From Gammaproteobacteria bacterium (GTDB lineage: Bacteria > Pseudomonadota > Gammaproteobacteria > Burkholderiales > Burkholderiaceae_C): a stretch of 64,000 bases of DNA. A program made the translations under genes and the position numbers. The DNA is taken from the NCBI GenBank assembly GCA_018828125.1, contig JAHJWB010000003.1, positions 275,034 to 339,033 on the forward strand. Reading direction: 5' to 3'. The stretch's first letter is position 1, and every line of letters begins with the position of its first letter. A model generated the notes under the pieces. The model was given only the letters and a program-made list of their open reading frames with translations, was not told the DNA's origin and searched no databases. Positions 19,332 through 24,315 of the stretch are shown piece after piece.

Positions 19332-20723
19332 ATGAGCGAAGTACTGTCCCCCACAAAAACACCCAAAGTCGGATTTGTCAGCCTTGGTTGCCCCAAGGCT
19401 TTGACCGATTCCGAGTTGATCCTCACGCAACTGAGCGCCGAGGGTTACGAAACCTCCAAGACCTTTCAGGGCGCGGACCTGGTCATCGTCAACACGTGCG
19501 GCTTCATCGACGATGCGGTCAAGGAAAGCCTGGACACCATCGGCGAGGCGCTGGCCGAGAACGGCCGGGTCATCGTCACCGGCTGCCTGGGCGCCCGCAC
19601 TGGCGACGATGGCGACAACATGGTGCGCAGAATGCACCCCAGCGTGCTGGCCGTGACGGGCCCGCATGCCACGCAAGAGGTGATGGACGCCGTCCACCTC
19701 AATTTGCCCAAACCACACGACCCTTTTATCGACCTCGTGCCCGGCAGTTTCGGTATTGCGGGCATCAAGCTCACGCCCAAGCACTACGCCTACCTGAAGA
19801 TCAGCGAAGGCTGCAACCACCGCTGCACCTTCTGCATCATCCCGTCGATGCGCGGAGATCTGGTGTCGCGCCCCATCGGCGACGTCCTGAGCGAGGCCAA
19901 GGCCCTGTTCGCTGGCGGCGTCAAAGAACTGCTGGTCATCAGCCAGGACACGTCTGCTTATGGCGTGGACGTGAAATACCGCACCGGCTTCTGGGACGGC
20001 AAACCTGTCAAGACCCGCATGCTGGAGCTGGTGCAGACCCTGGGCGAAATCGCCGAACCCTACGGCGCCTGGGTGCGCTTGCATTATGTGTACCCGTACC
20101 CTAGCGTCGACGAGGTCATCCCCCTCATGGCCACGGGCCGTGTGCTGCCGTACCTCGACGTGCCCTTCCAGCACAGCCACCCCGATGTCCTGAAGCGCAT
20201 GAAGCGCCCCGCCAGTGGCGAGCGCAACCTGGAGCGCATCCAGCGCTGGCGCGAAGCCTGCCCCGAGATCGTGATCCGCAGCACCTTCATCGCAGGCTTC
20301 CCCGGCGAGACGGAAGAAGAGTTCGCACACCTGCTCGACTTTGTGCGAGAGGCTCAGATCGACCGAGCCGGTTGCTTTGCTTACAGCGATGTGACCGGTG
20401 CTGCCGCCAACGCGCTGCCCGGCATGCTGCCGATGGAAGTGCGCGAAGAGCGCCGTGCCCGTTTCATGGCAGTGGCCGAAGAGGTGTCCGTTGCCAAGCT
20501 GCAGCGCCGTGTGGGCGCCACCATGCAGGTGCTGGTTGACTCTGCCCCCGGTTTGGGCCGAAAGGGTGGCGTGGGCCGCACCTATGCCGACGCGCCCGAA
20601 ATCGACGGCACTGTGCAGCTGCTGCCACCCGAGAAAATCAGCAAGACCATGAAGGTGGGCGAATTCACCAAGGCGCGCATCGTGGGCGTGCGAGGGCATG
20701 ATCTGGTCGCGCAGCCTATTTGA
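19332..20723 (+). CDS. rimO: Ribosomal protein S12 methylthiotransferase
   Basis: [26 protein letters not shown] radical-SAM motif, C-terminal TRAM. Confidence 0.96.
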
Positions 20724-20730
20724 GCATCGC

Positions 20731-20822
20731 AAAAATATGAGCTGCTAGCGCTTGAATCCATTGGGTTTCAGGTTGATTTGATATCGAAACCTATGTTTAT
20801 GAAGCGCTACCAGCTCCTATAT
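20731..20822. repeat. Inverted pair of palindromic repeat copies (3 and 4)
   Basis: tatgagctgctagcgctt (20736-20753) matches the reverse complement of 20802-20819 at 16/18 positions. Confidence 0.8.
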
Positions 20823-20922
20823 CCATAGCTGTCACCGCTGCGCCGCAAGGCGATTCCCCTCCGAATTCGGATATGCTTTTGGCGGCGTTCCCCATCCGGG
20901 CCACACATACGAGGAATACATC

Positions 20923-22104
20923 ATGGGTCTCATTCAGGCGGCTGTTGGTTCGATTGGCGGAATGCTTGCCGATCAGTGGAAAGACTTCTACACCGTACCC
21001 GACGGCCTGCCCGCCACGGCAGCTCTGTTTGCCGCGGTACCGCGCGGCACGAACGCCGGGCGGGTTTCGAACACCAGGGGGTCTTCGAACATCATTACCA
21101 ATGGCTCCAAGATCGTCGTGCCTGAGGGCTACGGTCTGCTGCTGTTCCAGGATGGCGCGATCACCGGCTTTGCCGCTGAGCCCGGTGGTTATGAGTGGAA
21201 TTCGAACGATCTCCAGTCGAAGTCGATCTTTACCGGCGGTGGTTTTGTCGAATCGATGGTCCAGCAAAGCTGGGAGCGCTTCAAGTTTGGCGGCCAGCCG
21301 GGCTCCCAGCAGTCTGCGTTCTTTGTTTCGCTCAAAGAACTGCCCGATAACCGGTTTGGCACGCAGTCCGACATTTACTGGGATGACCGCTACCTCAACG
21401 CGCAAGTCGGCGCCATCACCCGCGGCAGCTACACGCTGAAAATTGTCGATCCGATCCTCTTCGTCAAGAGCTTTGTACCGGCCAAGTACCTGCAACCGGG
21501 CCAGGTGTTTGATTTCACCGATCTTGACAATGCAGCGGCCAGCCAGCTTTTCAATGAAGTCGTGGGTTCCCTGGCACCGGCGTTCAGCCTGTACACCAAC
21601 GACCCTGAAAAGGGCAACCGCATCACCAAGATCCAGCAGGACTCGATCGGGTTTGCCAAGAGCCTGTCTGACGCGGTGGAGAGCGCCTACCAGTGGAAAT
21701 CCGACCGCGGTCTTGCCATCGTCAAGACGGCCATCGTCTCGATCGAGTACGACGCCCAGACCAAGGAACTACTCAAGACGGTGCAGCGCGCGGATGCGCT
21801 GCTGGGTGCGCGCGGCAATTCCAATCTGCAGGCCTCAGTGGCAGCGGGCATGCAATCGGCGGGTGAGAACGGCGGCGCCAACGGCATCTTTGGCATGGGC
21901 ATGGCAGCGGGCGTGGCGGGCATCAGTGGGCTGCAGCAGCCAGTGGCACCAGCGGTGCCCGTGTCCTCGGCACCCCCGCCGGCGGCGCCTGTGCCCGCCG
22001 ACGACCCGATTGTCCGGCTGACCAAAGCCAAGCAGATGCTGGACGCGGGACTCATCACGCAGGCCGATTACGATGCGGTGAAGGCCAAGGCGCTGGGCCT
22101 GTAG
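20923..22104 (+). CDS. SPFH/band-7-like protein (YdjI-like) with C-terminal SHOCT domain
   Basis: GAGGA RBS; ITNGSKIVVPEG, KELPDNRFGT, GMGMAAG, Pro/Ala linker, LTKAKQMLDAGLITQADYDAVKAKALG. Confidence 0.82.
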   Translation: MGLIQAAVGSIGGMLADQWKDFYTVPDGLPATAALFAAVPRGTNAGRVSNTRGSSNIITNGSKIVVPEGYGLLLFQDGAITGFAAEPGGYEWNSNDLQSKSIFTGGGFVESMVQQSWERFKFGGQPGSQQSAFFVSLKELPDNRFGTQSDIYWDDRYLNAQVGAITRGSYTLKIVDPILFVKSFVPAKYLQPGQVFDFTDLDNAAASQLFNEVVGSLAPAFSLYTNDPEKGNRITKIQQDSIGFAKSLSDAVESAYQWKSDRGLAIVKTAIVSIEYDAQTKELLKTVQRADALLGARGNSNLQASVAAGMQSAGENGGANGIFGMGMAAGVAGISGLQQPVAPAVPVSSAPPPAAPVPADDPIVRLTKAKQMLDAGLITQADYDAVKAKALGL

Positions 22105-22110
22105 GTTCAC

Positions 22111-23415
22111 ATGACGCAGCCCACGCCTGTGATGCCCACCGGGCCGGGGTCGCCGCAGGATGTGCCGCCTGCGCCAGGGCAGTTTCCGGTAGACCCGGCG
22201 ACGCTGCCTGCGTCGATTCGCGACGAGCTGCAGGCCCCTGACCCGACCGCCATCGACACCTCTGCCACCGAACTGCGCGATGGCGTCAACCGCTGTCCAA
22301 AGTGTGGCTCCACGGAGATCCGGCATCGTGCGGGCTCCGATAAGCTGATCTGCCTGTTTTGCCGCCATGAGTGGGTGGGCACGCGGGTAGAGGACGAATT
22401 CGGTCTTGGCGAGGGCATTGATGACCTGCGCGGAACCGTGATCGCCTCTGGGGCGAAAACCATCCAGGCCGATGTTTCCAGCCTGCGCACCTTCAAGTGC
22501 GGTGGCTGCGGCGCAGAAGTGGTGGTGAACACCGAAACCGCGATGACGGCGCGCTGCCATTGGTGCCGCCACGTCCTGGGCGTCAACGAGCAGATCGACA
22601 ACGGCGCAGTGCCCGATGCCGTATTGCCGTTTCAAATCAAGAAGGACGACGCGGTGGCGCGCATCCGCCAGTTTGTGGGCAAGCGCCAGATGTTTGCGCT
22701 CAAGGCCTTCAAGGAAGAGTTTTCGCCTGAAAACGTGCTTGGCGTGTACCTCCCCTACATGGTGGTGGACGCCAAAGCCAGCGCAGACGTGGCGGGATTT
22801 GGGGAGGTGGAAACGCGCCGCTACACGCGTGGCGAGGGCAAGGACCAGAAGACTTATTACGACGCCGATGTGTACCAGCTGCAGCGGCACGTCGACTTTA
22901 CGGTGGACGACCTGACGATGGAGTCGAGCGCCCAGCGTGGCAATCTGGACACCAAGGCCAACACCAACAACATCATCAACACCATCCTGCCCTTTGACAC
23001 CAAAAACGCAGTGAAGTGGAACGCCTCGTACCTGGCGGGCTACACCTCGGAAAAGCGCGACCGCGATGTCGAGCACTTGAACCCGCAGCTCGAAGACCAG
23101 TTGCTCTCGATTGCGCGCGCGCAGGTGCAGTCGTCAGTGCGCCAGTACGGCCGTGGTGTGCGCTGGGAGCAGGAGCGCATCGATGTGCACGGCACGCGCT
23201 GGGTGGCGATGTACCTGCCGGTGTGGCTGTATTCGTACCACCAGCCAGGCACGGGCCGTGGTGGGAGTGGCGGCATGTTGCACTACATCGCCGTGAACGG
23301 CCGCACCGGCGAGACCATGGGCAGTGTGCCCGTACAGCAGTGGAAGCTGATCACCGCCGCGCTCACCGTGGGCACGTTTGTCGAAGGCGTAGCGCTCTGG
23401 TTGGTGGGGAGATGA
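22111..23415 (+). CDS. Double zinc-ribbon protein with C-terminal TM (YdjG-like)
   Basis: Four CxxC motifs (CPKC, CLFC, CGGC, CHWC); PDAVLPF, GVYLPY, YLPVW, VNGRTGE; hydrophobic C-terminus. Confidence 0.82.
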   Translation: MTQPTPVMPTGPGSPQDVPPAPGQFPVDPATLPASIRDELQAPDPTAIDTSATELRDGVNRCPKCGSTEIRHRAGSDKLICLFCRHEWVGTRVEDEFGLGEGIDDLRGTVIASGAKTIQADVSSLRTFKCGGCGAEVVVNTETAMTARCHWCRHVLGVNEQIDNGAVPDAVLPFQIKKDDAVARIRQFVGKRQMFALKAFKEEFSPENVLGVYLPYMVVDAKASADVAGFGEVETRRYTRGEGKDQKTYYDADVYQLQRHVDFTVDDLTMESSAQRGNLDTKANTNNIINTILPFDTKNAVKWNASYLAGYTSEKRDRDVEHLNPQLEDQLLSIARAQVQSSVRQYGRGVRWEQERIDVHGTRWVAMYLPVWLYSYHQPGTGRGGSGGMLHYIAVNGRTGETMGSVPVQQWKLITAALTVGTFVEGVALWLVGR

Positions 23416-23669
23416 CGATGGACAGTGACGGTATTCTTTTTCTCCTGGCGCTGGGCCCGGCGAGCGCCGCGGGGTTGTACTGGATGTTGTACCGCTACTA
23501 CCGAAATACCGACAAATCGCACCATTTCGAGAGCGAAACCGAGGTCAAGGCCCAGCCAGTTACTGGCGCTGGCGAGGATGTGAAGGTGAACGAAGTCCGG
23601 GGTACGCAGGAGACGCAGATTCGCGGCAACAACGTGGGCGATTTCCGAAGGCGCGTGCAACGCACTTAG
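23412..23669 (+). CDS. Small membrane protein (85 aa), last gene of the SPFH operon
   Basis: ATGA overlap with the upstream stop; N-terminal TM GILFLLALGPASAAGLYWMLY then RYYRNTDK. Confidence 0.75.
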   Translation: MTMDSDGILFLLALGPASAAGLYWMLYRYYRNTDKSHHFESETEVKAQPVTGAGEDVKVNEVRGTQETQIRGNNVGDFRRRVQRT

Positions 23670-23689
23670 TGCACAGACTATGACCCAAC

Positions 23690-23718
23690 AAAAAAGGCTT
23701 CCCGAGGGAAGCCTTTTT
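23690..23718. terminator. Bidirectional intrinsic terminator
   Basis: aaaaaaggcttcc-cgag-ggaagccttttt between convergent genes. Confidence 0.9.
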
Positions 23719-23760
23719 GCTGTGCCTAACGCTGCGAGTCAGCAGCGGGTTGGCAGGTGA

Positions 23761-24315
23761 TTACACGCGCTTGCGGTATTCGCCGGTGCGGGTGTCGATT
23801 TCGATCTTGTCGCCTTGCGAGACAAACAGAGGCACGGGCACTTCAAAGCCGGTGGCGATCTTGGCGGGCTTGAGCACCTTGCCGGATGTGTCGCCCTTGA
23901 CGGCTGGCTCGGTCCAGGTGATTTCGCGTTCAACGCTGGTGGGCAGTTCGACCGAAATAGCCTTGCCGTCGTAGAACACCACTTCCAGCGTCATGCCGTC
24001 TTCCAAGTAGTTCAGTGCGTCGCCCATGTTTTCGGCTTCGACTTCGTACTGGTTGTATTCCGTGTCCATGCAGACATACATGGGATCGGCAAAGTAGGAG
24101 TAGGTGCACTCCTTCTTGTCCAGGATCACGTTGTCGATCTTGTCGTCGGCCTTGAACACGTTTTCGGTGCCGAAGTTGCCGATCAGGCTCTTGAGCTTCA
24201 TGCGCACGGTGGCTGCACCGCGGCCGCCGCGGGCGTATTCGGTCTTCAGGACCACCATGGGGTCCTTGCCGTGCATGATGACGTTGCCGGCGCGGATTTC
24301 TTGAGCGATTTTCAT
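23761..24315 (-). CDS. efp: Elongation factor P, Arg32 type
   Basis: [13 protein letters not shown] with R at position 32; [20 protein letters not shown]. Confidence 0.97.

Follow-up and report, generated by a model that had tools for sequence, protein, structure and literature searches.

SPFH proteins organise membranes in all domains of life. In bacteria, the recruitment to the membrane of an SPFH protein without an anchor of its own is known from one system only, SamGHI (YdjGHI) of Bacillus subtilis, a complex linked to envelope stress, where the picture is complicated by PspA and by a TPM-domain sensor. In this system YdjI/SamI has no membrane helix and needs YdjG/H to reach the membrane, SamG/H being the proteins that recruit it there (Scholz 2021, PMC8581546; Baur 2026, PMC13713150), and SamI restrains the activity of SamH (Baur 2026). 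An NTF2-like or YpeB-related fold has been proposed for the core of YdjG-type proteins by Ravi et al. (Ravi 2024, PMC11237479). The combination of Band_7_1, an SPFH-type domain, with a C-terminal SHOCT domain has been on record since 2013 as the commonest SHOCT combination, and one experiment in the same study did not support oligomerisation driven by SHOCT (Eberhardt 2013, PMC3581485). In this work, we describe a trio of co-directional genes found from the list of open reading frames and the sequence on the + strand, at positions 20923-23669, of a 64,000-nucleotide (nt) stretch of an Acidovorax genome (the whole stretch is hereafter called the window). The trio encodes an SPFH-SHOCT protein (gene 1), a zinc-ribbon protein with one membrane helix (gene 2) and a small single-pass protein (gene 3).

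We consider it probable that the trio is a horizontally spread, PspA-independent and TPM-less variant of the SamGHI-type scaffold, in which a split anchor made of genes 2 and 3 tethers the gene-1 protein. The same core as in SamGHI would then be contained in three small genes, also in genomes that lack PspA, and the trio may serve as a simple model of what an SPFH-anchor pair does by itself, with natural fusions showing which parts touch.

Relationship of the three genes to SamGHI

The link between the trio and SamGHI runs through Enterococcus, where a tblastn search against plasmid and phage records found distant gene-2 homologues. The annotation of E. gallinarum gives, in this order, an SPFH protein, a hypothetical protein and a TPM-domain protein. 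Gene 1 is 33% identical over 337 amino acids (aa) to the first of these (E 2e-51), which scores 49.9 bits to Band_7_1 (PF13421). The gene-2 family profile aligns with the middle protein along 345 columns (hhalign probability 100%, E 2.6e-41), which cover the core as well as the two ribbons and the membrane helix; this protein combines two Zn ribbons (TF_Zn_Ribbon, 29.9 bits) with a core and ends in a helix. In the third protein, a TPM domain is accompanied by a signal peptide, a membrane helix and a tail rich in Gly, and its gene overlaps the anchor gene by ATGA, the position held in the window by gene 3. E. faecalis DNA and a gut Firmicute carry the same SPFH-G-TPM operon. These architectures are the ones published for YdjI, YdjG and YdjH (PMC11237479; PMC8581546; 10.1101/2021.02.15.431232), and gene 2 itself matches the description of YdjG, in which a pair of Zn ribbons at the N-terminus is followed by a conserved core and, at the C-terminus, by a membrane helix (PMC11237479). 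A relationship of the trio with SamGHI, which had been proposed in the initial annotation, is thus supported at the sequence level.

Two of the Enterococcus records deserve a comment. In the E. gallinarum 'plasmid' pK205-4a-A (NZ_CP116511.1; locus L117), the SPFH-G-TPM operon is surrounded by dnaX, recR, tmk and genes for ribosomal proteins, and the same operon is carried by an UNVERIFIED_ORG record named 'Enterococcus phage Efs 1-1-1' (OR846590.1; locus L119). Both look like chromosomal DNA under another label.

Gene 1 codes for a soluble SPFH (flotillin-like) scaffold protein. Its match to Band_7_1 reaches 23.8 bits, just below the curated Pfam cut-off of 24, and that to SHOCT (PF09851) 23.7 bits at aa 365-391, below the cut-off of 27. 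PF13421 and PF09851 are both among the precomputed Pfam domains of close gene-1 homologues, PF09851 in several of them, and the AlphaFold model places two helices (aa 362-374 and 380-390) over the SHOCT region. The model has an overall predicted local distance difference test (pLDDT) score of 61.7, with 70-85 in the core and a disordered linker. A Foldseek search of the PDB with it returned 33 matches at E <= 0.001 (probability 0.99-1.00, best E 1.3e-6), all of them SPFH proteins (stomatin, HflK/C, erlin, prohibitin, flotillin) or major vault protein, and every one of the top 30 is an SPFH protein that forms a ring or cage. As modelled, gene 1 has the fold of an SPFH protein, in agreement with the SPFH identity given to it in the initial annotation. 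The PDB sequence search found no relatives of gene 1. To our knowledge, all SPFH proteins of solved structure form a ring or a cage. Gene 1 has no membrane helix (peak Kyte-Doolittle hydropathy 1.27).

In gene 2, the four CxxC pairs (C62/65, C81/84, C130/133 and C149/152) and the C-terminal membrane helix that had been noticed from the sequence were both confirmed. All eight Cys are invariant in an alignment of 28 sequences, with homologues of 28-50% identity, and in another of 56, and the hydrophobic segment at aa 413-432 (Kyte-Doolittle 1.77) falls on a helix at 410-433 in the AlphaFold model. This model is better than that of gene 1, with a pLDDT of 80.6, around 90 in the core, and a predicted template modelling score of 0.71. 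It shows helices packed on unusually long strands (209-240, 247-271 and 350-378). In the PDB, Foldseek found nothing below an E of 0.04, YpeB and PepSY entries were absent from the top 50 matches, and the PDB sequence search found no relatives of gene 2, so that the modelled core appears to be a fold without a solved relative. Neither Pfam nor NCBIfam holds a family that gene 2 matches above cut-off, only weak and generic zinc-ribbon matches (TFIIB, RpoP and S27e types) being found, and scans of the trio proteins against PADLOC, PHROGs and NCBIfam were uninformative. The family is nevertheless large: homologues of gene 2 form 3,289 clusters (50% identity) at E <= 0.001, with hosts that include Proteobacteria, Actinobacteria-like contigs, Lachnospiraceae, Mogibacterium, Tannerella, Enterococcus and Listeria.

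Two other observations concern gene 2. Some Firmicute anchor homologues (P0417, P0426, P0496 and P0504) carry the precomputed Pfam accession PF27618, a domain that may already be defined in a recent Pfam release. The gene-2 model (window 22111-23412) also matches two giant-virus proteins in BFVD, from Yasminevirus (A0A5K0UBJ7) and Edafosvirus (A0A3G4ZSZ8), both annotated as 'DnaJ-like subfamily C member 3' (Foldseek E 1e-9 to 4e-9, 255-298 columns).

Gene 3 is, as initially described, an 85-aa single-pass protein. It has one hydrophobic helix at aa 7-27 (Kyte-Doolittle 1.78), with acidic residues before and basic residues after it, and its sequence contains no ectodomain. It had been regarded as a different third subunit, a view that does not hold when the wider family is considered. 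Many gene-2 homologues (e.g., P0251, P0256, P0282 and many from Firmicutes) extend beyond the first membrane helix, and the extension consists of a second helix and a tail with YRN..[RK]H.[HY]E.ET and, later on, I.G.N, which is the sequence of gene 3. Because its helix and tail motif occur fused to gene-2 homologues, gene 3 is, judging from these alignments, no unrelated subunit but a piece of the anchor, comprising its second helix and its tail, that has been split off. A gene-3-like piece is also a separate gene in L112 (a Firmicute-like contig), L114 (an Actinobacteria-like contig) and L116; those of L112 and L116 have a signal peptide and a short ecto-segment. Gene 3 may correspond to the helix-plus-tail part of YdjH. 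In fact, hhalign places the gene-3/tail profile on the helix and juxtamembrane tail of TPM proteins, in the register that would be expected. The score is 24 (probability 11%), the highest value among 40 column shuffles being 16.2. Such a similarity is weak, being suggestive of a common helix and tail without establishing it.

The order gene 1-gene 2-gene 3 is kept in all 80 related loci returned from species-representative genomes by a search with an alignment of eight sequences. This search returned relatives of 73-95% identity and did not reach Bacillus. Further away, the SPFH gene also adjoins the anchor gene in homologues of 22-32% identity, from Actinobacteria-like, Firmicutes and Comamonas sources. 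Moreover, a Band_7_1 SPFH domain and a Zn-ribbon anchor are joined in a natural single chain in P0368 (682 aa; L122-L124, 263-2311), which was found on four metagenome contigs, convergent with a class A penicillin-binding protein gene; its SPFH part aligns with gene 1 at an hhalign probability of 99.95% (E 9e-38). The N-terminal extensions of P0292 and P0276 were also considered as SPFH fusions and were rejected, since they are not SPFH. Taken together, the linkage, the P0368 fusion and the reports that SamG/H recruit SamI support the tethering of gene 1 by the anchor.

The absence of PspA and TPM from the trio, pointed out in the initial annotation, holds for all 80 related loci, none of which has pspA or a TPM gene in the cassette. 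The single PspA/IM30 gene of the window's genome is unlinked to the trio. It is of the YjfJ type and lies on another contig (L001, G000:C1:335034-338714), directly 3' of a DUF2170 (YjfI-like) gene, a pair that corresponds to the CesT/Tir-PspA dyad of Ravi et al. (PMC11237479). The two TPM genes of this genome are on a further contig, away from both the trio and PspA. Among genomes of the same genus, a PspA_IM30 match is present in 3 of 6 carriers of the trio and in 7 of 19 non-carriers, and the three carriers without any such match are 96-100% complete. PspA as a hidden partner was rejected on this co-occurrence. Since half of the carrier genomes do without it, PspA is not an obligatory partner of the trio.

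Distribution of the cassette and its place between rimO and efp

The trio has a patchy distribution. A close gene-2 homologue is present in 6 of 25 genomes of the same genus, in 2 of the 151 genera of the window's family, in 2 of 401 genomes sampled evenly from the class (14 more have distant homologues) and in 20 of 121 genomes of the Stenotrophomonas family. The presence in only two genera of the family speaks against vertical conservation of the trio across it. All seven mapped copies (those of the window, of five other carriers of the same genus and of L003, from another genus of the family) have rimO on one side and efp on the other, and in eight genomes of the same genus rimO is next to efp, leaving the site empty. 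In Thermomonas, Ottowia, Paenacidovorax and others, the trio is found in unrelated contexts.

A tree of genes 1 and 2 separates a Burkholderiales clade with 14 members from a mostly Lysobacterales clade with 60, in which Hydrogenophaga is nested, and the two clades are only about 0.12 substitutions per site apart. The identity of RimO to that of the window was used as a yardstick for the divergence of the trio proteins. For Stenotrophomonas, RimO is 61% identical to that of the window, gene 2 76% and gene 1 79%; for Panacagrimonas, the values are 62%, 78% and 80%, for Ottowia 85%, 84% and 84%, and for Rubrivivax 81%, 74% and 81%. Within the order, the cassette is at least as diverged as RimO, whereas between orders it is much less so. 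The low divergence between orders, far below that of RimO, supports a transfer between Lysobacterales and Burkholderiales, apparently followed by vertical descent in an Acidovorax sub-lineage. The horizontal acquisition that had been suspected from the window is supported by the patchy distribution, the empty rimO/efp sites, the tree and the RimO comparison.

For this genome, the result is a clear three-gene insertion into the rimO/efp terminator region, and the placement between these two genes, the tight linkage (a 6-nt gap followed by an ATGA overlap) and the ribosome-binding site of its own before gene 1 (GAGGAA at 20911-20916) were all as initially described (table 1). The cassette, together with a conserved leader of about 60 nt, lies between the REP-like (repetitive extragenic palindrome) hairpins of the spacer and the terminator. 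In Acidovorax genomes without the trio, the space between rimO and efp is occupied by similar hairpins, and the REP-like element of the window is context that lies outside the cassette. The bidirectional terminator had been taken as the trio's own. The hairpin is real, but the same one stands between rimO and efp in eight Acidovorax genomes in which the trio is absent. It is thus the terminator native to the rimO/efp site, of which the cassette now makes use. No direct or inverted repeats flank the cassette within the window. The sole trace of insertion is a duplicated terminator hairpin in another copy, L020 (G163:C6), where it (AAAAAAAGGCTTCC...GAAGCC) stands both 5' of gene 1 and 3' of gene 3, and this could be a target duplication caused by insertion. 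In L022 (G158:C108), from another Acidovorax genome, both spacers are much larger, with 2071 nt between rimO and gene 1 and 561 nt between gene 3 and efp, and they seem to contain additional coding sequence in the opposite orientation; this site has therefore taken up further insertions.

The TTCGGATATGCTTTTGG motif of the leader (20866-20882 in the window) is conserved 5' of gene 1 in all Comamonadaceae copies, and TATGCT at 20872-20877 within it is a possible -10 box. A consensus sigma-70 scan of the leader gave no promoter, and an Rfam scan of 20500-23900 found nothing close to a gathering score. The leader of the Lysobacterales copies (L040-L111; e.g., L094 and L082) differs from that of the window. 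About 60 nt 5' of gene 1 it has a -10-like box, TGTATAGT, followed, just before the ribosome-binding site, by an inverted repeat (GGCGGGCAC-GG-TGCCCGGCC) in which compensating changes occur, such as CAGGCA/TGCCTG in S. maltophilia. This repeat could be a repressor operator or a hairpin of the 5' untranslated region.

Table 1. Features of the trio and of its surroundings, in window coordinates
Feature	Position (nt)	Strand	Description
rimO	ends 20723		upstream flank
REP-like hairpin element	20739..20816	.	inverted arms GAGCTGCTAGCGCTT / AAGCGCTACCAGCTC; between rimO and cassette
Leader travelling with cassette	20866..20922	+	conserved TTCGGATATGCTTTTGG; GAGGAA ribosome-binding site at 20911-20916
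Gene 1	20923..22104	+	393 aa; GAGGAA ribosome-binding site 20911-20916
Gene 1, N-terminal helix			conserved, MGLIQA..GG.LADQWKDF
Gene 1, SPFH core			about aa 55-290; followed by a helical region
Gene 1, Gly/Met-rich patch			aa 317-337; followed by a Pro/Ala linker
Gene 1, SHOCT tail	22015-22095		aa 365-391
Gene 2	22111..23415	+	434 aa; starts 6 nt past the gene-1 TAG stop
Gene 2, N-terminus			variable, Pro-rich
Gene 2, Zn ribbon 1	22294-22362		aa 62-84
Gene 2, Zn ribbon 2	22498-22566		aa 130-152
Gene 2, conserved alpha/beta core			about aa 165-405
Gene 2, membrane helix	23347-23406		aa 413-432
Gene 3	23412..23669	+	85 aa; ATG overlaps the gene-2 TGA (ATGA); GGGGAG upstream
Gene 3, membrane helix			aa 7-27
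Gene 3, tail motif	23490-23540		aa 27-43, YRYYRNTDKSHHFESET; I.G.N motif (IRGNN) later on
Bidirectional intrinsic terminator	23690..23718	.	hairpin AAAAAAGGCTTCCC-GAG-GGAAGCCTTTTT, A and T runs on its sides; shared with efp
efp	23761-24315	-	downstream flank

Proposed working of the trio and other explanations

We infer that genes 2 and 3 would each provide one membrane helix, the two forming a helical hairpin with the gene-2 helix running from inside to outside and the gene-3 helix from outside to inside. The acidic residues before and the basic residues after the gene-3 helix fit this topology. All soluble parts, namely the two Zn ribbons, the beta-rich core and the charged tail of gene 3, would then be cytoplasmic. 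The anchor so formed would bind the soluble SPFH-SHOCT protein and keep it at the inner face of the inner membrane, where gene 1 probably oligomerises into a ring or cage. Such an assembly might organise or stabilise a membrane patch, with a role in fluidity or envelope-stress homeostasis, or in the control of a client protein.

Some points weigh against this reading. The gene-1 model is of only moderate confidence (pLDDT 61.7); the kinship to YdjG, YdjH and YdjI of B. subtilis was traced through the Enterococcus relatives; the gene-2 core is without a solved relative; and a patchy, transferred cassette also fits a role in conflict or defence.

A wider version of the split-anchor model is, in our view, doubtful. 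Genes 2 and 3 may represent a general membrane receptor for anchor-less Band_7_1 SPFH proteins across bacteria, in which the very long beta-hairpins of the gene-2 core might assemble into a ring that serves as a template for the SPFH cage. In that case, YdjH/SamH would be this helix-plus-tail subunit extended by an ectodomain, and the trio the minimal PspA-independent core of the whole SamGHI type. Behind this idea stands a graded series, from a TPM ectodomain in Enterococcus, through the short ecto-segment of L112 and L116, to no ectodomain in gene 3 and the full anchor fusion of many Firmicutes.

If the split anchor does hold an SPFH cage at the membrane, the function of the cage might lie in the regulation of a membrane protease or other client encoded elsewhere, as in HflK/C-FtsH or in stomatin with its partner protease, with genes 2 and 3 as an adaptor. 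The structural neighbours of gene 1 include the HflK/C-FtsH, prohibitin and erlin assemblies, all of which gate clients, and the restraint of SamH by SamI in B. subtilis (PMC13713150) would be of the same kind. We consider this unlikely, as no protease or NfeD-like gene is linked to the trio in any examined locus, and the cassette moves between orders as three genes only, so that the client would need to be widely conserved.

The accessory and patchy distribution of a compact cassette transferred between orders is also what would be expected of an anti-phage or other conflict module, that is, a membrane complex that senses infection or membrane damage and aborts the infection, for example by disturbing the membrane. 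The Foldseek matches of the gene-2 model to pore and secretin proteins with long beta-hairpins would suit such an effector, but they are not significant (E >= 0.04, template modelling scores < 0.1), and no recognisable effector domain was found in the trio proteins with Pfam or NCBIfam. A phage response had been raised in the initial annotation, and the PADLOC check that was run on it returned no match for the trio; in PADLOC-DB 2.0 genes 1 and 3 match nothing, and gene 2 reaches only 11.8 bits to PDC-S64, through its zinc ribbon. Moreover, the examined loci have housekeeping or metabolic genes as neighbours and no defence islands or mobile elements. Members of the family are rare in phage records (8 of 50,697) and in plasmid records (11 of 72,556), and several of these records look chromosomal. 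A full-text literature search found no described SPFH defence system of this composition. A conflict module is, in our view, quite unlikely.

Very unlikely is a membrane-tethered regulator in which the TFIIB-type gene-2 ribbons would bind DNA or RNA and the SPFH protein would release or sequester them: gene 2 does have weak TFIIB, RpoP and S27e matches in Pfam and NCBIfam, and TF_Zn_Ribbon domains are known to bind DNA (Popp et al., 10.1101/2021.02.15.431232), but all these matches are generic and below cut-off, the invariant gene-2 residues other than the Cys ligands lie mostly in the core or near the membrane helix and not in the ribbons, and no site-1 or site-2 protease or sigma factor is linked to the trio.

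Comparison with described SPFH systems

The membrane scaffold that we propose can be compared with three groups of known proteins. Among solved structures, those of the HflK/C, stomatin, flotillin, prohibitin and erlin type (e.g., PDB 7vhq, 9oh9, 9bq2 and 8rrh) share with gene 1 an SPFH fold followed by a helical region, at a sequence identity of only 9-16%. These assemblies are ring- or cage-shaped oligomers at the membrane, which is the mode expected for gene 1. Their proteins, however, have membrane anchors of their own, whereas gene 1 is without one and seems to rely on anchors encoded separately.

In domain architecture, gene 1 appears to have exactly the combination of PF13421 and PF09851 described by Eberhardt (2013, PMC3581485). 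That description covers a single protein, without the conserved anchor genes that accompany it here.

The closest likeness is with SamGHI. In both cases a soluble Band_7_1 SPFH protein has a low-complexity linker and a small C-terminal domain, its partner combines two Zn ribbons with a conserved core and ends in a membrane helix, and the genes are adjacent. The differences are also clear. Unlike in the PspA-SamGHI system, there is no pspA in the operon of the trio, and none in the genome of three of the six carriers. The TPM ectodomain protein is missing, and an 85-aa helix-plus-tail protein stands in its place. The SPFH protein of the trio ends in a probable SHOCT domain, whereas that of the SamI type ends in a zinc finger. 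Finally, the SPFH gene comes first in the trio, and the host is a proteobacterium, to which regulation by sigma-W does not apply.

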